DNA from: a virus
Lineage: Duplodnaviria > Caudoviricetes
Length of the DNA stretch: 64,000 nucleotides
Reading direction: 5' to 3' (one strand)
Virus record (IMG/VR): IMGVR_UViG_3300021399_000106
Coordinates: 1 to 64,000 of that record
This document shows, one piece after another, positions 27,577-43,725 of this stretch (the first letter of the stretch is position 1; every line of letters begins with the position of its first letter). Under the pieces are notes generated by a model, which was not told the origin of the DNA, did not search any database, and worked only from the letters and a program-made list of their open reading frames with translations. Position numbers and translations under genes: made by a program.

Positions 27577-27991
27577 GGGCTTGTTTATGGATTCGCTGAG
27601 AGTTCAGAGAAAAGGTAAGCATACGGAGTAGACTTCGTTACCAACGTCGAGGTTTGAATAAACGCAAACTCAATTAAAAACAAAATCGCAAACTTCTTCA
27701 GAGGCTTTGCTTCTCAAAGAGTTGCAGCATTAGCTTAATTAACGAATATTAAGCAAACGAAAACTAGAATACCTATACTAGTAAGTAGTTACATTTTCAT
27801 AGGGGTAGAGGACCTTTGTATTTATTAGCAGTCGAAAGGAAATCGAAACGACCATAGAAACTAATCGAATTACATTTCTAATTTGCTTATTTACAGATGA
27901 TGTAATTTGTACGAGGATATAAATAAGATAATATGTAGAAAGCCTAATTGAAGGATTTTCATACGGGAGTTCGAGTCTCCCCAGGTCCACC
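27577..27991 (+). ncRNA. ssrA: tmRNA
   Basis: acceptor GGGCTTG/CAGGTCC-ACC with G3.U, GGATTCG 5' motif, T-arm GGGAGTTCGAGTCTCCC, tag 27664-27738 ANSIKNKIANFFRGFASQRVAALA*. Confidence 0.92.
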
Positions 27992-35855: not shown

Positions 35856-36146
35856 ATGGTAGAGGTTAGTAAAACTGGTTTTAAAAATTTATGTTTTGAT
35901 TTAATTGGTAGTGAAACAAAATTAGATATTGTTGTTAGAGAAGAAAATGAAAAAGGTATCAGAGCAATATATTGTGAAGTTCCTACATTATCGGAATTAA
36001 AAAAACAATATCCTGATGTTAAAGAATTATATAAATATATAGCAAAACATATTAAAGATAGTTGCTTTCATGTTTGTGAATATAATAAAAAAACACAATT
36101 ATTAATTATAGATGGAAGCAAATATGAGGAAATAAAAATTGTATAA
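35856..36146 (+). CDS. hypothetical protein
   Basis: ORF, RBS, promoter. Confidence 0.65.
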   Translation: MVEVSKTGFKNLCFDLIGSETKLDIVVREENEKGIRAIYCEVPTLSELKKQYPDVKELYKYIAKHIKDSCFHVCEYNKKTQLLIIDGSKYEEIKIV

Positions 36147-38259: not shown

Positions 38260-38328
38260 GTCAGTATAATGGTTTATGGATTCATTTCTATAAACCATTT
38301 TTATTTTATATAGGAAAGGAATTAAATT

Positions 38329-39315
38329 ATGCAAAGAATGATAAGTGGTATTAAACCAACAGGAAAAGTAACGTTAGGAAATTATATTGGTGCAATAAAA
38401 CAATTTATAAAATATCAAGATGATTATGATTTATGGGTTTTTATAGCGGATTTGCACGCATTAACACTTCCTATAAGCCAAAAGGAGTTACTCGAAAATA
38501 CGGAGAATTTAGCGGCGATTTATATAGCTGCTGGATTAGATCCTAAAAAGGTAACTTTATTTAAACAATCTAGTATTGTTGGACCTACAGAATTAAGTTG
38601 GTTACTAACTTGTAATACTGTTTTAGGTGAATTAACTAAAATGCCACAATATAAAAATTATTGTGAAAATCATAAAGGTGAAGGTGTTCCAACTGGTATG
38701 TTAATGTATCCTTCCTTAATGAGTGCCGATATATTATTATATGATGCTGATTATGTTCCAGTAGGGGAAGATCAAAAATCGCATGTTGATTTATGTAGAG
38801 ATATGGCTGAAAAGTTTAATAAAAGATATCCTGATAGTTTTAAATTACCTGAAACTATATTAGCTAAACAAGGTGCCAAAATAATGAGTTTATCAAATCC
38901 TACAAAGAAAATGAGTAAATCAGAATCTGATAAAGGAACAATTTATATTTTAGATGATATAGAAATATCTAAGAAAAAAATTATGAAAGCTTTAACTGAT
39001 AGTGAAGATAAAGTATATTATGATCCAATTAATAAACCAGGAATTTCAAATCTATTAACAATTTATAGCTGTTTAAGTGGAGAAGATATTAAAGTAATTG
39101 AAGATAGATATAAAGATGCTATTAATTATGGTATATTTAAGAAAGATTTATGTACATTATTAGAAAAGGAATTATTACCTATTCAAGAAAAAGTTAGAAA
39201 GTTAAAAGAAAGTGGAGATTTGGATTTAATATTATTTAATGGCTCATTATCTGCACAATCAGCTGCAAAAAGAAAAATTACAGAAATTTATAAAAAAGTT
39301 GGTTTATTAGATTAA
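38329..39315 (+). CDS. trpS: tryptophanyl-tRNA synthetase
   Basis: SGIKPTG.TLGNYIGA, ADLHA, YP.LMSADIL, PVGEDQ, KMSKS. Confidence 0.95.
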   Translation: MQRMISGIKPTGKVTLGNYIGAIKQFIKYQDDYDLWVFIADLHALTLPISQKELLENTENLAAIYIAAGLDPKKVTLFKQSSIVGPTELSWLLTCNTVLGELTKMPQYKNYCENHKGEGVPTGMLMYPSLMSADILLYDADYVPVGEDQKSHVDLCRDMAEKFNKRYPDSFKLPETILAKQGAKIMSLSNPTKKMSKSESDKGTIYILDDIEISKKKIMKALTDSEDKVYYDPINKPGISNLLTIYSCLSGEDIKVIEDRYKDAINYGIFKKDLCTLLEKELLPIQEKVRKLKESGDLDLILFNGSLSAQSAAKRKITEIYKKVGLLD

Positions 39316-39531
39316 AATTAATTGTATAATATATTGTTAAAAATTAATAAATATTTAGTTAGATTCAAAGAAAATTATAATTTTATAAAAAAAGTTATTT
39401 TAGGTATTGATTTTTAGAAAAAAATATTGTATAATATATATGTAAAATAAAAATAATTAATTTTAGTAAAAACAGAGAAATTTGTTGTACTAAATTAGTT
39501 AAATAAAAAATTTGTTAAGGAGAACACAGTT

Positions 39532-39699
39532 ATGAAAACATTATTAAGTCTAATAAAATTACATAATCTTAATAGTCAATATCCGTTACAATCATACTGT
39601 GATTACTCTGAACAAATTACAGACAACGCTGTATTCACAAATAAACCATTTGGGTATGAAGCGAGAGAAAATAGCACACGAGGTTTTCCTAGAAGTTAA
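39532..39699 (+). CDS. putative leader peptide upstream of tRNA array
   Basis: 55 codons, RBS AAGGAG, between promoter 39407-39435 and terminator. Confidence 0.55.
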   Translation: MKTLLSLIKLHNLNSQYPLQSYCDYSEQITDNAVFTNKPFGYEARENSTRGFPRS

Positions 39700-39725
39700 C
39701 TGAAACTAATCTTTTAAAATAATTT

Positions 39726-39757
39726 AAGGACTAGCAAAGTTAGCTAGTCCTTTTTTA
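39726..39757 (+). terminator. intrinsic terminator/attenuator before tRNA array
   Basis: AAGGACTAGC..GCTAGTCC+T6. Confidence 0.75.
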
Positions 39758-39771
39758 TTTGTTATTTATAT

Positions 39772-39847
39772 AGGTCTTTAGTTTAATAGGTAAAATGATA
39801 GTCTCCAAAACTATAAGATGTGAGTTCGAATCTTACAGGGCCTGCCA
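39772..39847 (+). tRNA. tRNA-Trp(CCA)
   Basis: cloverleaf, G73, CCA. Confidence 0.9.
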
Positions 39848-39864
39848 TAAAATTAAATATAATA

Positions 39865-39965
39865 AAGACAGTTACAGCAATTCTAAATGCTAGACAAATG
39901 GATAAGTCAATTTCCTGCTAAGAAATCATTTTGGGTTCAAATCCCAAGCAAATAAAACTGTCTTG
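39865..39965 (+). ncRNA. clamp element E1 with acceptor-truncated tRNA-Ser(GCT)-like module
   Basis: AAGACAGTT-ACAGCAA...AACTGTCTTG around D, anticodon and T arms. Confidence 0.7.
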
Positions 39966-39970
39966 TATAT

Positions 39971-40046
39971 GGGGCATTAGCTCAGCTGGGAGAGCGTCTG
40001 TTTTGCACGCAGAAGGTCACCGGTTCGATCCCGGTACGCTCCACCA
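39971..40046 (+). tRNA. tRNA-Ala(TGC)
   Basis: cloverleaf, G3.U70, CCA. Confidence 0.92.
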
Positions 40047-40203
40047 TATAGATTGTACCTGTTACTATAGAACAGTTATGATAAATATAAAGCGTTCATT
40101 TGATAAATGAAAGAAAGATAAAGTGGTGATTTATCTCCTTCCGATATACTGGTGGGATAGCTTATAAGCTAGTGTTAAGCCTAGGACAATTAACACTTAA
40201 AAT

Positions 40204-40279
<76 letters not shown>

Positions 40280-40302
40280 TAAAAATAAATATTTAAGATA
40301 TA

Positions 40303-40420
40303 AAGACTCATACTGCAATTATTCCATTCTAGGATTTTTAGCTCATTTGGTAGAGCGTCAAACTTGTAATTTGAAAGTAGCAGGTTCAAGTCCTGCAGAA
40401 TCTATGATAAACGAGTCTTG
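40303..40420 (+). ncRNA. clamp element E2 enclosing CCA-less tRNA-Thr(TGT)-like module (40332-40404)
   Basis: AAGACTC-ATACTGCAA...AAAC-GAGTCTTG. Confidence 0.7.
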
Positions 40421-40425
40421 TAAAT

Positions 40426-40502
40426 GGACATGTAGCTCAGTTGGTTAGAGCTCCCCGCTCATAACGGGGCGGTCCTAGGTTCGAGACCTAGCTTGTCCAC
40501 CA
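40426..40502 (+). tRNA. tRNA-Ile2/Met(CAT)
   Basis: cloverleaf, GGAC acceptor like Bacillota Ile2, CCA. Confidence 0.85.
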
Positions 40503-40509
40503 GTTAAAT

Positions 40510-40585
40510 CGCCCCATCGACAAGCGGCCTAAGTCATTGGACTTTCTATCCAACATCGCCGGTTCGAATCCGGCTGGGGTGACCA
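40510..40585 (+). tRNA. tRNA-Glu(TTC)
   Basis: cloverleaf, CCA. Confidence 0.88.
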
Positions 40586-40589
40586 TAAT

Positions 40590-40667
40590 CGTCGCGTAGT
40601 GGAATTGGTTAACACACTTGCCTCTCAAGCAAGAGATTTACGAGTTCAAATCTCGTCGCGTCGACCA
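40590..40667 (+). tRNA. tRNA-Glu(CTC)
   Basis: cloverleaf, CCA. Confidence 0.85.
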
Positions 40668-40672
40668 TAATT

Positions 40673-40748
40673 GTTCCCATAGGCTAATGGACTAGACCAC
40701 TAGGCTACGAACCTAGTAATGAGGGTTCGAATCCTTCTGGGAATGCCA
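40673..40748 (+). tRNA. tRNA-Arg(ACG)
   Basis: cloverleaf, CCA. Confidence 0.9.
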
Positions 40749-40759
40749 TTTAAATATAT

Positions 40760-40836
40760 TGGCTGTTAGCTCAATTGGTTAGAGCATCGGACTGTTAATC
40801 CGGGGGTTGAGAGTTCAAGTCTCTCACAGCCAGCCA
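40760..40836 (+). tRNA. tRNA-Asn(GTT)
   Basis: cloverleaf, CCA. Confidence 0.92.
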
Positions 40837-40838
40837 AT

Positions 40839-40913
40839 GCAGGTATAGTATAAAGGTTAGTATTTCAGTCTTCCAAACTGAGGATACGGTTTCGAGATCC
40901 GTTACCTGCTCCA
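40839..40913 (+). tRNA. tRNA-Gly(TCC)
   Basis: cloverleaf, U73, CCA. Confidence 0.88.
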
Positions 40914-40986
40914 TAAAATTCTAAAGAAAGAGGTAATCGCTATGGAATCTGATTATAGCTATTATTACAACTTAATAATTAAATTT

Positions 40987-41071
40987 CGTGGCGTAGTTCG
41001 TTAAAGAGGCGAGGAAGTCCGTAAAACTTTCATCTTAGATCCGCTGAGAGCATTACTCAGAGCCACGACCA
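40987..41071 (+). ncRNA. degenerate tRNA-like RNA (GTA loop)
   Basis: CGTGGC/GCCACG+ACCA, non-canonical T-loop. Confidence 0.45.
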
Positions 41072-41075
41072 ATAT

Positions 41076-41165
41076 GGGTATGAGGCTACTGTCGGTTGCG
41101 TGGCGGCAGACTGTAAATCTGTTACATTGGAAACGTCGTAGGTTCGACTCCTACCATACCCACCA
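41076..41165 (+). tRNA. tRNA-Tyr(GTA)
   Basis: cloverleaf, long variable arm, CCA. Confidence 0.85.
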
Positions 41166-41168
41166 AAT

Positions 41169-41245
41169 GGACGCTTAGCTCAGCTGGGAGTAGCGCTTGC
41201 CTTACAAGCAAGAGGTCACAGGTTCGATCCCTGTAGCGTCCACCA
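41169..41245 (+). tRNA. tRNA-Val(TAC)
   Basis: cloverleaf, CCA. Confidence 0.92.
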
Positions 41246-41330
41246 GCCGATTTTAAGACATAATTGCTTAAAGGTTGTTTGCCAGACTTTAGTAGTAACG
41301 GCATCGAATAAAAACTGGCATTTAATATTT

Positions 41331-41407
41331 CGGGATTTAGCTCAGCTTGGTAGAGCGCTTGGTTTGGGACCAAGATGTCGTAGGTTCGAATCCTATAATC
41401 CCGACCA
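41331..41407 (+). tRNA. tRNA-Pro(TGG)
   Basis: cloverleaf, CCA. Confidence 0.92.
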
Positions 41408-41448
41408 AATAAGTTGTGGGTATAATAAGACTTGAAACCCTCATAAGT

Positions 41449-41524
41449 GGCCCGTTAGTTCAGCGGTTTAGAATCTTCGGCTGTCTCCCGAGGGACACGA
41501 GTTCGAATCTCGTACGGGTCGCCA
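41449..41524 (+). tRNA. tRNA-Asp(GTC)
   Basis: cloverleaf, G73, CCA. Confidence 0.9.
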
Positions 41525-41528
41525 TAAT

Positions 41529-41621
41529 GGTCAGTTGGCAGAGTCTGGTTTATTGCACTGGTCTTGAAAACCAGCGACGGTGATGAGCCGTCCGTGGGTT
41601 CAAATCCTACACTGACCGCCA
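41529..41621 (+). tRNA. tRNA-Ser(TGA)
   Basis: cloverleaf, long variable arm, CCA. Confidence 0.92.
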
Positions 41622-41639
41622 TTAATTAAAATTATATAT

Positions 41640-41768
41640 GCTCACGTTATAGTCACATCAATTTATGGATGGTTGCAAACTGAAATAAGGAGATGAGGAT
41701 GAATCTTGGAGATGGCCACCGAGATGAACGCAATACGGTATTAGGTGCAATTCCTTTTGTGGGTACCA
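41640..41768 (+). ncRNA. oversized (129 nt) tRNA-like RNA
   Basis: GCTCACG/TGTGGGT+ACCA, T-loop AGG-TGCAATT-CCT. Confidence 0.5.
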
Positions 41769-41773
41769 TATAT

Positions 41774-41850
41774 CCAATAGTAGCTCAGTTGGTTAGAGCA
41801 CTCGGCTGATAACCGAGAGGTCGATTGTTCAAATCAATCCTATTGGACCA
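41774..41850 (+). tRNA. tRNA-Ile(GAT)
   Basis: cloverleaf, CCA. Confidence 0.9.
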
Positions 41851-41856
41851 TAATAT

Positions 41857-41943
41857 GCTCCGGTGGTGGAACTGGTATACACGTTGGACTTAAAATCCAA
41901 TGCCTTTACAGGATTGAGGGTTCAAATCCCTCTCGGAGCACCA
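41857..41943 (+). tRNA. tRNA-Leu(TAA)
   Basis: cloverleaf, long variable arm, CCA. Confidence 0.92.
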
Positions 41944-41952
41944 AATATAAAT

Positions 41953-42029
41953 GCTCGAGTTAGTTCAGTTGGTAGAACATCTGATTGTGGCTCAGAGGGT
42001 CAAGGGTTCGAGTCCCTTACTTGAGCCCA
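41953..42029 (+). tRNA. tRNA-His(GTG)
   Basis: cloverleaf with G-1:C73, CCA. Confidence 0.9.
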
Positions 42030-42121
42030 TATAAAATATTAGAAAAAGGAGAACGACGTATATGAAACGAAAATGTAGATGTCGAAAGTGTTGTAGGAAA
42101 CAATTTAATAGATTTTTATAT

Positions 42122-42197
42122 GCGCCGTTAGCTTAACTGGTAGAGCTCTGGTCTCTTAAACCTGAGGTTATAGGTTCAAATCCTATACGGCGCACCA
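42122..42197 (+). tRNA. tRNA-Lys(CTT)
   Basis: cloverleaf, imperfect anticodon stem, CCA. Confidence 0.8.
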
Positions 42198-42203
42198 ATA
42201 GAT

Positions 42204-42279
42204 GTGCCTGTAGCTCAGATGGTAGAGCACTTGACTTTTAATCAAGGGGTCACGAGTTCGAACCTCGTCGGGCACACCA
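42204..42279 (+). tRNA. tRNA-Lys(TTT)
   Basis: cloverleaf, CCA. Confidence 0.92.
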
Positions 42280-42284
42280 TGAAT

Positions 42285-42361
42285 GTGCCGTTAGCTCATT
42301 CGGATAGAGCAACCGCCTTCTAAGCGGTAGGTGATAGGTTCGAGTCCTATACGGCACGCCA
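42285..42361 (+). tRNA. tRNA-Arg(TCT)
   Basis: cloverleaf, CCA. Confidence 0.92.
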
Positions 42362-42370
42362 TTATTTAAT

Positions 42371-42444
42371 GCGTCCGTAGCCAAGTGGTAAGGCAGGAGG
42401 CCGCAACCCTCTGATCACTGGTTCAAATCCAGTCGGATGCTCCA
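42371..42444 (+). tRNA. tRNA-Cys(GCA)
   Basis: cloverleaf, U73, C33, CCA. Confidence 0.85.
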
Positions 42445-42448
42445 TTAT

Positions 42449-42525
42449 CTCCTAATAACCCAATCGGAAGAGGTAGTAAGCTCAAACCTTACAAAGTATT
42501 GGTTCAAATCCAATTTAGGAGACCA
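42449..42525 (+). tRNA. tRNA with CAA anticodon (nominal Leu), short variable loop
   Basis: CTCCTAA/TTAGGAG+ACCA; GTAAG-CTCAAAC-CTTAC. Confidence 0.75.
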
Positions 42526-42554
42526 TATATTGTATAATATTTAGATATAAAGTT

Positions 42555-42629
42555 GCCGCTTTAGTATAAAATCTATTACGATTGAATGGTAATCAATTGA
42601 AGGCGGAGAGTTACCGTCAAGCGGCACCA
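42555..42629 (+). tRNA. tRNA-Thr(GGT), degenerate D/T loops
   Basis: GCCGCTT/AAGCGGC+ACCA; ATTGA-ATGGTAA-TCAAT. Confidence 0.65.
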
Positions 42630-42635
42630 TTAAAT

Positions 42636-42711
42636 GCCACTCTAGCTCAGTAGGTAGAGCGTTGGCCTGAAGAGCCAAGCGTGGTAGGTTCGATTCCTAC
42701 GGGTGGCGCCA
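42636..42711 (+). tRNA. tRNA-Phe(GAA)
   Basis: cloverleaf, CCA. Confidence 0.9.
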
Positions 42712-42714
42712 AAT

Positions 42715-42789
42715 GCGTGAGTAGTATAATGGTTAGTATATGTCCTTGCCAAGGATAAGGTGCGGGTTCAATTCCCGTCTCGCGCTCCA
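42715..42789 (+). tRNA. tRNA-Gly(GCC)
   Basis: cloverleaf, U73, CCA. Confidence 0.88.
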
Positions 42790-42816
42790 GAGTAGATTTG
42801 AAAGGAAGTAATTATT

Positions 42817-43233
42817 ATGAGTTTATATACTAGAGTATATGAAGATTTTATTAAAGCAAGAAAAGATAAAAATGAAGTAAATAAAAATATTTTAGGTTTA
42901 TTATATAATGCTTTAAAAAACAAAGCAATTGAATTAAGAGTTGATGAATTAACTGATGCTGATTCTAGTTCTGTAATTAAGAAAGTTTCTAAACAATTAG
43001 ATGAAGAAATTGAATGCAATGTAAAGGTTAATAGAACTGAAAAAGCAAATGAATTAACTTATCAAAAGAATTTAATTCAAGACTACTTACCAAAACAATT
43101 AAGTGAAGATGAAATTAAGACTATATTAAATACTCTAGAAGATAAAGCTATTCCTTCAGTAATGAAGTATTTTAAGACTAATTATAATGGTCTAGTAGAT
43201 ATGAGCTTAGTTAGTAAGCTCGCTAGACAATAA
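42817..43233 (+). CDS. GatB/YqeY-domain protein
   Basis: ARKDK..LKN..I..LTD..VIKK..KQ..YLPKQLSEDEI..VDM pattern. Confidence 0.8.
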   Translation: MSLYTRVYEDFIKARKDKNEVNKNILGLLYNALKNKAIELRVDELTDADSSSVIKKVSKQLDEEIECNVKVNRTEKANELTYQKNLIQDYLPKQLSEDEIKTILNTLEDKAIPSVMKYFKTNYNGLVDMSLVSKLARQ

Positions 43234-43235
43234 TT

Positions 43236-43310
43236 GCCAGTTTAGCTCAGAGGAAGAGCAAACCGCTCATATCGGTTAGGTCGAGATATCGTAATTCTCA
43301 GCTGGTACCA
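43236..43310 (+). tRNA. tRNA-Met(CAT), atypical T-loop
   Basis: cloverleaf, CCA. Confidence 0.75.
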
Positions 43311-43315
43311 TATAT

Positions 43316-43400
43316 GCCGGTGTGGTGGAATTGGTAGACACCCTAGTCTTAGAAACTAGTGCTGAAAGGCGTGAGGGTTCAAGTCCCTCCACCGGTACCA
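43316..43400 (+). tRNA. tRNA-Leu(TAG)
   Basis: cloverleaf, long variable arm, CCA. Confidence 0.92.
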
Positions 43401-43555
43401 TTTGATTATTCATTTATTAATAGTAAGCGCGGTAGTATTATTAATAAATTTATAATAGTTGCCATTTAGAAAAATGGAGCGTATGACACTGATTGCAAGG
43501 TGTGTAACGACTGATGAAATGTGGAGCCGACAGTATAAAAAAACTCCAACCATAT

Positions 43556-43630
43556 AGGACCGTAGCCAAGTGGTAAGGCAAGGGACTTTGACTCCCTCAT
43601 TCGAAGGTTCGAACCCTTCCGGTCCTGCCA
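43556..43630 (+). tRNA. tRNA-Gln(TTG)
   Basis: cloverleaf, CCA. Confidence 0.92.
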
Positions 43631-43634
43631 AAAT

Positions 43635-43725
43635 GGTTGCTTACTCAAGAGGTCGAAGAGGGTGCACTGCTAACGCATTAGGAGTTTAATCGCTCGCGGG
43701 GGTTCAAATCCCTCAGCAACCGCCA
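43635..43725 (+). tRNA. tRNA-Ser(GCT)
   Basis: cloverleaf, long variable arm, CCA. Confidence 0.9.

Follow-up and report, generated by a model that had tools for sequence, protein, structure and literature searches.

What the near-complete sets of transfer RNA (tRNA) genes of large phages do, and when they do it, is debated: matching of codon usage, replacement of degraded host tRNAs and escape from anticodon nucleases have all been proposed. A 166.5-kb phage record of IMG/VR (IMGVR_UViG_3300021399_000106; Caudoviricetes; 93% complete; about 26% G+C) raises the question in a concrete form. In its first 64 kb (positions 1 to 64,000, the window of this study), where all long open reading frames (ORFs) lie on the + strand, an array of tRNA genes is preceded on that strand by a promoter (39407-39435), a ribosome-binding site, an ORF of 55 codons and an intrinsic terminator, with the first tRNA 15 nt further on. 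An earlier note, made from the letters of this DNA alone, had placed all these elements, and each is found where it put them. Is this little ORF a gene in its own right, or does its translation decide whether the tRNA genes are transcribed? We consider it probable, if well short of assured, that the cassette is a ribosome-dependent transcription attenuator, gating read-through from promoters at 39322 and 39427 into the array. Judged from the sequence, it would gate no fewer than 14 tRNA genes, and probably 24, in a phage in which TGA is recoded.

Terminator, anti-terminator and stop codon

Homologues of the 55-residue leader product were gathered by word-based and profile searches of metagenomic proteins, with one further locus from a DNA pattern scan, and among those proteins only small ORFs of 55-58 residues came up. 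They make up eight lineages (the window with L006, L007, L008/L009, L010, L015, L011, L012/L013 and L018). The earlier note had suggested that the same layout be sought before the tRNA arrays of related phages, and it is indeed kept in all eight, with a tRNA gene downstream in seven: a promoter motif, a long 5' untranslated region (UTR) with CTAAATT, AAGGAG, the ORF, AGTTAAC, 4-6 nt, (C/T)TAATCTTT (TTATTTCTT in L018), 8-12 nt, AAGGACTAG, a loop ending in AGTTA, CTAGTCCTT and a T-run. The two spacers between the invariant elements vary freely. Elsewhere, blastn and tblastn against GenBank phages detected no relative of the ORF or of the locus; IMG/VR, when scanned with back-translated patterns of the ORF and of TrpRS, the tryptophanyl-tRNA synthetase encoded just upstream, gave nothing, and it gave nothing with the full attenuator pattern either. 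In JGI metagenomes this full pattern retrieved one relative (L013); another JGI pattern match, L014, was discarded as a chance match behind a bacterial two-component gene. Rfam searches of the window region and of four relatives, at gathering score and at E<=1, returned tRNAs and the transfer-messenger RNA (tmRNA) only, and no T-box.

The terminator (39726..39756, +) consists of a 5' arm (39726-39735), a loop (39736-39742) containing AGUUA, a 3' arm (39743-39752) and a T-run that extends to 39756. Its stem (39726-39752) has 10 bp, 5 of them GC, for a stability of -14.9 kcal/mol, which makes it the strongest of the 16 perfect-stem terminators on the + strand of the genome. Across the eight lineages it is paired in 100% of the alignment cells, with one compensatory change from C:G to U:A, and its stability stays between -12 and -16.4 kcal/mol.

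The 5' arm has another potential partner upstream. The element CTAATCTTT (39706..39714, +), a weakened copy of the terminator 3' arm whose two weakening differences are retained by every lineage, is the 5' strand of an inner helix and pairs with AAGGACTAG (39726-39734) at 8 of 9 positions, worth -2.9 kcal/mol alone. The earlier note had spotted this pairing, which proves to be real; missing from its account was the larger hairpin around it, where an outer helix joins UAACU (39697-39701) to the AGUUA of the terminator loop (39738-39742). Written out, the inner helix is CUA-A-UCUUU:AAGGA-C-UAG and the outer one UAAC(U):(A)GUUA; the anti-terminator thus combines CUAAUCUUU:AAGGACUAG with UAACU:AGUUA, AAGGACUAG being the strand that it has in common with the terminator. 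In the window both helices together reach -5.4 to -6.2 kcal/mol, varying with the cut point of the fold, and in relatives the anti-terminator reaches -8.4 to -12.3 kcal/mol. When alternative folds were computed, as the same note had advised, the anti-terminator came out as the fold of lowest energy for nascent RNA that does not yet include the 3' arm, in six lineages even with the naked ORF included; the local hairpin was folded in 8/8. The estimated barrier to refolding is 6.4-12.7 kcal/mol; roughly converted into rates, this would let refolding take anything from fractions of a second to seconds.

Conservation follows this predicted architecture closely. The anti-terminator is paired in 96.4% of cells (alignment A4), as against 21-49% when its partner is slid by 1-3 columns. 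Substitutions in the 5' strand occur only opposite G (C to U twice, and CU to UC opposite GG in L018) or at the A.C mismatch, while the six A-U or U-A positions show no substitution in any lineage. The shared 3' strand is invariant throughout, and since it must fit two partners such freezing is to be expected. Taken in the window alone, a hairpin with at least 8 arm bases paired arises in 0.4% of shuffles and in 4.3% of random genomic 29-mers; it is the comparative pattern, rather than the window alone, that carries the argument for this putative anti-terminator. A further comparison is provided by 92 other IMG/VR terminators with an identical stem: their loops are quite different, and none of them (0/92) has AGTTA in the loop, the CTAATCTTT element or the peptide. 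As an aside, the stem AAGGACTAG/CTAGTCCTT, with other loops, is present in 87 unrelated viral contigs of IMG/VR (L019-L098), when fewer than one would be expected for 21 fixed bases (a rough estimate), so that many phages or prophages seem to make repeated use of this stem as a terminator.

The position of the stop codon is kept as well. In the window the stop codon (39697-39699) is part of the nucleotide-invariant AGTTAAC(T) (39694..39701, +), which also supplies the outer helix with its 5' strand (39697-39701). The ORF ends at the TAA inside AGTTAAC in five lineages; in L007 and L008/L009 it runs 5 nt further, to a TAA that abuts the inner strand. AGTTAAC is invariant in all lineages although L007-L009 use another frame there, and it must therefore be constrained as RNA. 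In every lineage 0-7 nt separate the stop codon from the inner strand downstream, and 21-29 nt separate it from the terminator arm. When a stop codon occupies the A site of a bacterial ribosome, the footprint extends some 12-13 nt beyond the first base of that codon. By this geometry a terminating ribosome would cover the outer strand and, of the inner strand, either the first bases or the whole, ending at least 10 nt before the 5' arm of the terminator.

What lies downstream fits a gate. The gene for tRNA-Trp(CCA) starts at 39772, 15 nt past the T-run, and opens a series of 24 tRNA genes by ARAGORN (39772..42525, +). In the seven lineages with readable downstream DNA a tRNA gene begins 4-21 nt after the T-run, too little room for a promoter; five of them have Trp(CCA) at this place and L011 has Ala, and the tRNA of L008 is a different one that is apparently interrupted. 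L015 has an array of 30. A promoter between the terminator and tRNA-Trp, which the earlier note had named as fatal to its proposal, would have to be of another kind than the phage's motif class, of which none is recognisable there; indeed that motif does not occur between 39427 and 42530. A promoter hidden in the spacer before the terminator was also considered and rejected, the spacer being variable and devoid of a conserved -10. There is a weaker TATAAT candidate at about 41420, whence the conclusion that at least 14 tRNA genes (39772-41407), probably 24, depend on read-through. Upstream, by contrast, the neighbour varies: TrpRS, a tRNA with anticodon UCA alone, a Ro-like gene with a small RNA, or a tmRNA, and the cassette also occurs without TrpRS (L011, L015, L018). 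It therefore travels with the array downstream of it. The promoter motif is met again inside the array, at 42530-42541, just after tRNA-Leu(CAA); the distal array and the gene for YqeY probably have a start of their own and escape the attenuator. In L008 (575-1176) a different tRNA-like 5' half precedes an ORF whose N-terminus is rich in Cys and which has an AWNKG-type motif, where W and a second position are in-frame TGA codons. This ORF resembles a gene for a homing endonuclease of the HNH type that interrupts the first tRNA or takes its place, and its TGA at W would be direct evidence, at the level of sequence, that TGA stands for Trp in this phage group.

Two promoters would feed the switch. 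The first, P1 (39322..39333, +), just 3' of the TrpRS stop, is an exact copy of the recurrent motif of this phage, TTGTATAATATA, also written TTGTATAAT(ATA), which has 22 matches versus 5.3 expected, mostly on the + strand and upstream of genes; it is retained in L007, L008, L012 and L013. The second, P2 (39407..39435, +), has a -35 TTGATT, a 17-nt spacer and a -10 TATAAT inside TTGTATAAT, which belongs to the same motif. The P2 -10 motif is present in 8/8 lineages, and the -35 TTGATT in the window, L007, L008, L011 and L012, being degenerate in L010, L015 and L018 (alignment A5). Between P1 and P2 a conserved insert, some 130 nt long and richer in G+C, is found in L008 (20-170), L012 (5670-5830), L013 (2300-2470, - strand) and L006, the window and L007 being without it; it has no match in Rfam and may be a small RNA. 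The 5' UTR that follows P2 (39442..39531, +) is about 90 nt long, when other genes with the same promoter motif have 20-30 nt or so before their ribosome-binding site. Folding and alignment A5 place in it a conserved hairpin (39454-39468 with 39488-39501), which stands before the ribosome-binding site, and the heptamer CTAAATT (39490-39496), invariant in 8/8 lineages. This heptamer is the 3' strand of the UTR hairpin in some lineages and lies just 3' of it in others. The ribosome-binding site, AAGGAG (39517-39522), and the start codon ATG are kept in 8/8.

The leader ORF and its content

The leader ORF (39532..39699, +) comprises 55 codons and a TAA. Its homologues are open in all eight lineages, over 55-58 codons, despite insertions and deletions: the frame survives a 6-nt insertion in L009 and a local frame change at the 3' end in L007-L009. 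Its last part encodes a conserved C-terminal peptide, KPFGYEARENxTRGxP (codons 38-53; 39643..39690, +), in which the ratio of nonsynonymous to synonymous change (dN/dS) is 0.04-0.25 for a dS of 0.3-1.5; over codons 6-37 dN/dS is 0.5-1.2. The leader is, on this comparative evidence, translated, because the ORF stays open across indels, because its C-terminal dN/dS is low in the presence of synonymous change, and because its ribosome-binding site and start are kept. The 16 C-terminal codons are under strong purifying selection, and the middle evolves in a near-neutral way.

What could this peptide be for? It belongs to no Pfam or PHROG family, its look-alikes in the ESM Atlas are weak and unnamed only, and AlphaFold2 gives the leader peptide no confident fold (pLDDT 57, pTM 0.17). 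The segment GGGUAUGAAGCGAGAG in codons 38-53 is conserved at the nucleotide level, and no RNA partner consistent across lineages was found for it. The conserved segment ends in RGxP, 1-3 codons before the stop. A pure codon sampler would leave such a C-terminus unexplained, which suggests that the nascent chain itself takes part; the peptide is probably a parking or pausing device, or else the sign of a more specific signal.

The earlier note had counted by hand 19 of the 20 amino acids, Trp being absent, and 34 different codons in the ORF, and its counts are exact. Their significance was evaluated against 55-codon windows of the phage's own genes. Nineteen amino acids in 55 codons are not unusual (tail probability 0.14), while 34 distinct codons are (mean 25.9, standard deviation 2.7, tail 0.0004); yet once the amino-acid sequence is given this number is only mildly raised (P 0.025 in the window, 0.02-0.5 across lineages). 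Codon diversity was therefore abandoned as an independent signal: it mostly follows amino-acid diversity, and the case rests on the repertoire and on the rare codons. As for the latter, CCG, GGG, GCG and CGA, four of those that had been singled out, are very rare here (each at most 1.5 per 1000), and finding four in the leader has a tail probability of 0.012; most of the named codons, however, are not conserved. The exceptions are GGG (39652-39654, +), kept in 7/8 lineages, and GCG (39661-39663, +), kept in 8/8; they represent 2-3% of the Gly and Ala codons of the genome, and neighbouring four-fold sites vary. Rare codons are enriched in most lineages (2-6 versus about 0.9 expected), and these are different codons except for GGG and GCG.

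The repertoire holds across relatives: at least 19 of the 20 amino acids are present in 8/8 lineages, and all 20 in L018, which includes a Trp (TGG). Among random 55-residue windows of phage proteins 13.8% have at least 19 (P 0.138) and 2.3% have 20. If the 16 conserved columns are kept constant and the other positions are sampled from phage composition, the probability of at least 19 is 0.08-0.11 per lineage (about 0.09). The single His and Cys residues occupy alignment positions that differ between lineages, so that the set of amino acids has been kept through turnover rather than simply inherited. A star-tree simulation with the three distant lineages then known gave 0.045-0.155; for three to four independent lineages outside the discovery lineage, our own estimate is roughly 1e-3 to 1e-4. 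The absence of Trp, by contrast, is no design rule: it has a probability of about 0.6 by chance per lineage, and L018 carries Trp.

How the switch would work, and what else might explain the locus

As we picture it, a ribosome keeping pace with RNA polymerase would, upon reaching the stop codon, block the anti-terminator; the terminator would then form and transcription end. Were the ribosome delayed anywhere in the leader, or never loaded, the anti-terminator would form first and hold AAGGACUAG, and the polymerase would pass into the tRNA genes. In the absence of a 1:2 hairpin, lack of translation would give read-through and not super-attenuation. The delay measured would be that of overall decoding speed, hence of shortage or damage of any tRNA instead of the supply of one amino acid, and tRNA supply would thus be placed under a feedback loop; it is the presence of 19-20 amino acids in every lineage, together with several rare codons, that makes overall decoding speed the probable input. 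The least certain step concerns the last 16 residues, which, lying in the exit tunnel at the end of the ORF, might slow elongation or release and so leave the ribosome parked. Both the switching and its dependence on tRNA supply we infer from sequence. The earlier note had understood the locus as a general sensor of tRNA shortage. Much of this interpretation stands, with a translated leader, a terminator and an anti-terminator sharing a strand, a stop codon placed so as to mask, and a near-complete repertoire; it does not account for the C-terminal peptide, which the note had missed.

A narrower version of the ribosome-dependent switch, and a subset of it, may be entertained as a tentative proposal. 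Here the leader would be a general meter of decoding speed: a test ORF that selection keeps supplied with every amino acid and with rare codons, and whose translation races RNA polymerase to the terminator. Whichever tRNA species was lost or cleaved, for instance through the action of host anticodon nucleases or through phage-induced shutoff, a complete replacement set would be switched on, while under healthy translation the C-terminal nascent peptide would park the ribosome on the anti-terminator.

Several observations weigh against an attenuator of this kind. Nascent-RNA folds of the naked leader displayed no pause or anti-anti-terminator hairpin comparable to the 1:2 hairpin of trp. The anti-terminator is weaker than the terminator in 7/8 lineages (-6.2 kcal/mol in the window); it lacks two-sided covariation, because its 3' strand is frozen; and the chance level in the window alone, those 4.3% of random genomic 29-mers, is modest. 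The eight lineages are related, so that per-lineage values for the repertoire were not multiplied and do not amount to eight independent trials. A speed sensor needs no conserved peptide, and selection on the last 16 residues could be that on an ordinary small protein. The L018 contig ends 36 nt after an apparent ribosome-binding site and ATG beyond the terminator, not a tRNA. Public RNA runs, from metatranscriptomes of sheep, bovine and other guts, yielded contigs of relatives that span the UTR and ORF (X2, 39478-39677) or tRNA-Trp to tRNA-Ala (X1, 39781-40014), and none from an RNA run bridges the terminator, which is evidence neither way; a bridging contig, X5 (39422-39842), comes from a run of unknown kind and is likewise no evidence either way. 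Finally, in Bacillus subtilis transcription often outruns translation, which makes a kinetic race harder if the host is, as is likely, a member of the Bacillota, where the two processes are only loosely coupled. Ribosome-dependent attenuators nevertheless function in B. subtilis, as vmlR demonstrates (PMC9226507).

The main rival is a plain one. The ORF would be an ordinary gene for a small phage protein, served by its own promoter and followed by a terminator that is strong but leaks, and constitutive read-through would supply the tRNAs; the hairpin would also stabilise the 3' end of the small mRNA once RNase P has cut at tRNA-Trp, and the apparent anti-terminator would be a by-product of AT-rich sequence. 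We think this unlikely, while taking it seriously. Strong purifying selection on the 16 C-terminal residues is what a functional peptide would display, the terminator is more stable than the alternative hairpin, whose pairing, in the window alone, is equalled by the random 29-mers already mentioned, and internal hairpins are not unique to this place, since another (at 38268) stands between tRNA(UCA) and TrpRS within one apparent unit. A small gene, however, would not lead one to expect CTAATCTTT, AGTTAAC and the AGTTA of the loop to be invariant over a divergence that saturates synonymous sites, when the spacers between them vary, nor substitutions to be confined to sites that preserve pairing, nor AGTTAAC to persist across a change of frame. 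Nor does it account for same-stem terminators lacking the leader elements (0/92), for a peptide whose middle is near-neutral and which has no predicted fold, or for a cassette that stays with tRNA arrays as its upstream neighbour changes.

Two further explanations keep a switch and change its trigger. In one, the C-terminal peptide would stall the ribosome near the end of the leader upon one signal (a metabolite, a release factor or one aminoacyl-tRNA), as in TnaC, SpeFL, SecM or MsrDL, and the stalled ribosome would set the choice between terminator and anti-terminator, the amino-acid repertoire being incidental. By established geometry, a C-terminal segment of about 16 residues would sit in the exit tunnel once the ribosome has come to the end of the ORF. 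It is precisely these residues that are conserved at the peptide level, with RGxP 1-3 codons before the stop, as the remainder drifts; a ribosome arrested at Pro-53, whose codon lies 12-18 nt from the inner strand in all lineages, would cover the outer strand only. This arrest scenario, which can be combined with the ribosome-dependent attenuator, nonetheless appears rather improbable to us: no known arrest motif or family is matched, there is no candidate ligand, and the repertoire of 19-20 amino acids and the enrichment in rare codons are left unexplained. In the other, a phage or host protein, or an uncharged tRNA in the manner of a T-box, would bind the invariant elements and select the structure, translation of the ORF being irrelevant. 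The invariance of these elements does exceed what pairing needs, and genes for RNA handling surround the module (TrpRS, YqeY, Tpt1/KptA, a Ro-like protein and a ligase). Against this stand the lack of a T-box or any other Rfam family even at E<=1, an anti-terminator without a UGGN bulge, a strand common to two helices that is expected to be frozen without any protein, and the constant position of the stop codon in the 5' strand, which is left without a reason; the chances of such a factor strike us as slim.

Neighbourhood, related systems and meaning

The cassette sits within an RNA-centred module that comprises tRNA(UCA) (38184), TrpRS (38329-39315, +), the tRNA array (about 30 genes over 39772-43725), YqeY, Tpt1/KptA, a Ro-like DUF2828 protein and a ligase; a tmRNA gene is found further upstream, at 27577. 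Between 38130 and 39315 the order is a promoter motif, the tRNA with anticodon UCA (labelled SeC by ARAGORN), a hairpin with a T-run (38268-38299) and TrpRS. The tRNA(UCA)/TrpRS pair is also present in L012/L013, and L011 has a tRNA(UCA), 97 nt long, without TrpRS; this pair is a probable kit for changing opal to Trp. Reading TGA as an amino acid raises coding density from 0.63-0.89 to about 0.95 from about 60 kb onward (checked over G000:C1:60000-160000), and brings little gain over the first 60 kb, which is nearly indifferent to the code. It follows that the phage is TGA-recoded with a code-neutral early region, and that the leader reads identically under both codes. Recoding of TGA with a standard-code early region is known in gut phages, and TrpRS with a suppressor tRNA in the TGA-recoded Jade phages of Firmicutes (10.1101/2021.08.26.457843). 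Our phage is a rumen phage with relatives in samples from sheep, bovine and other guts; its host is likely one of the Bacillota, as indicated by the nucleotide similarity of TrpRS, the strong AAGGAG ribosome-binding sites and the hosts of Jade phages.

Other segments of this region deserve mention. Between 36000 and 38180 G+C is raised (0.34), with promoter motifs at 36139 and 37210 and few ORFs between tRNA-Met (37478) and tRNA(UCA); Rfam has nothing above threshold in this segment beyond these two tRNAs, and it may hold further small RNAs. The tRNA-Ser(gct) called by ARAGORN (39884-39955) is embedded in a longer conserved stem (AAAGACAGTTACAGCAA ... CTGTCTT), seen at 39865-39960 of the window and in L010:1-100. 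Similar tRNA-like modules adjoin the Ro-like gene in L015:1780-1900, and such modules near a Ro-like gene are possibly Y-RNA-like partners of the Ro-like protein.

Among known systems, the leaders of amino-acid operons come closest: a ribosome at the stop codon covers a strand, so that fast translation leads to termination and delay to read-through (PMC1183508, PMC3082878). With trpL, hisL, leuL, thrL, pheL, the multivalent ilvGMEDA leader and that of pheST (pheM), the phage cassette has in common a short translated leader, an intrinsic terminator and a 5' arm with an alternative partner upstream, and the geometry of its stop codon is that of trp-type attenuation. It departs from these enterobacterial leaders chiefly in the absence of any run of regulatory codons: a test for such runs found none, and instead of a run for a single amino acid in 14-32 codons there are 55-58 codons with 19-20 amino acids and scattered rare codons. 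The phage leader also has a conserved C-terminus and no 1:2 hairpin that we could find, and its targets are phage tRNAs instead of biosynthetic enzymes. A second group of relatives comprises leaders that sense stalling (vmlR, msrD, lmo0919, bmrCD, PA5471/ArmZ, topAI-ToiL), several of them in Bacillota, where the slowing of an upstream ORF turns on a gene that helps translation (PMC9226507; 10.1101/2021.11.29.470318). An upstream ORF with a terminator and an anti-terminator is common to vmlR-type leaders and to the phage; the former, however, are short, sense ribosome-bound antibiotics and control ABCF or efflux genes, whereas the phage leader is long and rich in composition, its presumed signal being tRNA supply and its target a tRNA array.

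As in the arrest peptides TnaC, SpeFL, SecM, MifM and the RAPP-type ApdA/ApdP, only a C-terminal segment of tunnel length is conserved, here with Arg-Gly-x-Pro near the stop, and the end of the ORF overlaps the regulatory RNA. Unlike them, the leader has no motif match, no signal peptide and no membrane anchor, and any arrest is putative; TnaC and SpeFL moreover act on Rho-dependent termination, when the phage terminator is intrinsic. The T-box leaders of Bacillota also choose between terminator and anti-terminator so as to report tRNA status, and here too the switch stands beside an aminoacyl-tRNA synthetase gene; the phage unit differs in its translated ORF and in having neither specifier loop, T-box sequence nor Rfam match. 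Finally, the module resembles the code-change modules of TGA-recoded gut phages, with tRNA(UCA) and TrpRS in a standard-code early region and in-frame TGA late, and no leader or attenuator before a tRNA array was described there (Borges et al., 10.1101/2021.08.26.457843). Searches of the literature brought up no case in which tRNA genes, or the tRNA arrays of phages, are under leader-peptide or other ribosome-dependent attenuation, nor any leader whose defining feature is a complete set of amino acids. Leader-peptide attenuation and the sensing of stalling are thus known; what would be new is the tRNA-array target and the leader that contains all amino acids.

If the reading proposed here is true, a decoding-speed attenuator makes the tRNA array demand-driven and homeostatic, and not a constitutive supplement. 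The presence of tRNA(UCA) and TrpRS just upstream further raises the question of how the supply of tRNA is timed relative to the switch of code. Being self-contained within about 350 nt, the cassette may also lend itself to use as a portable sensor of translational capacity. More generally, attenuation would be extended from 'one amino acid, one operon' to 'any tRNA, all tRNAs'.

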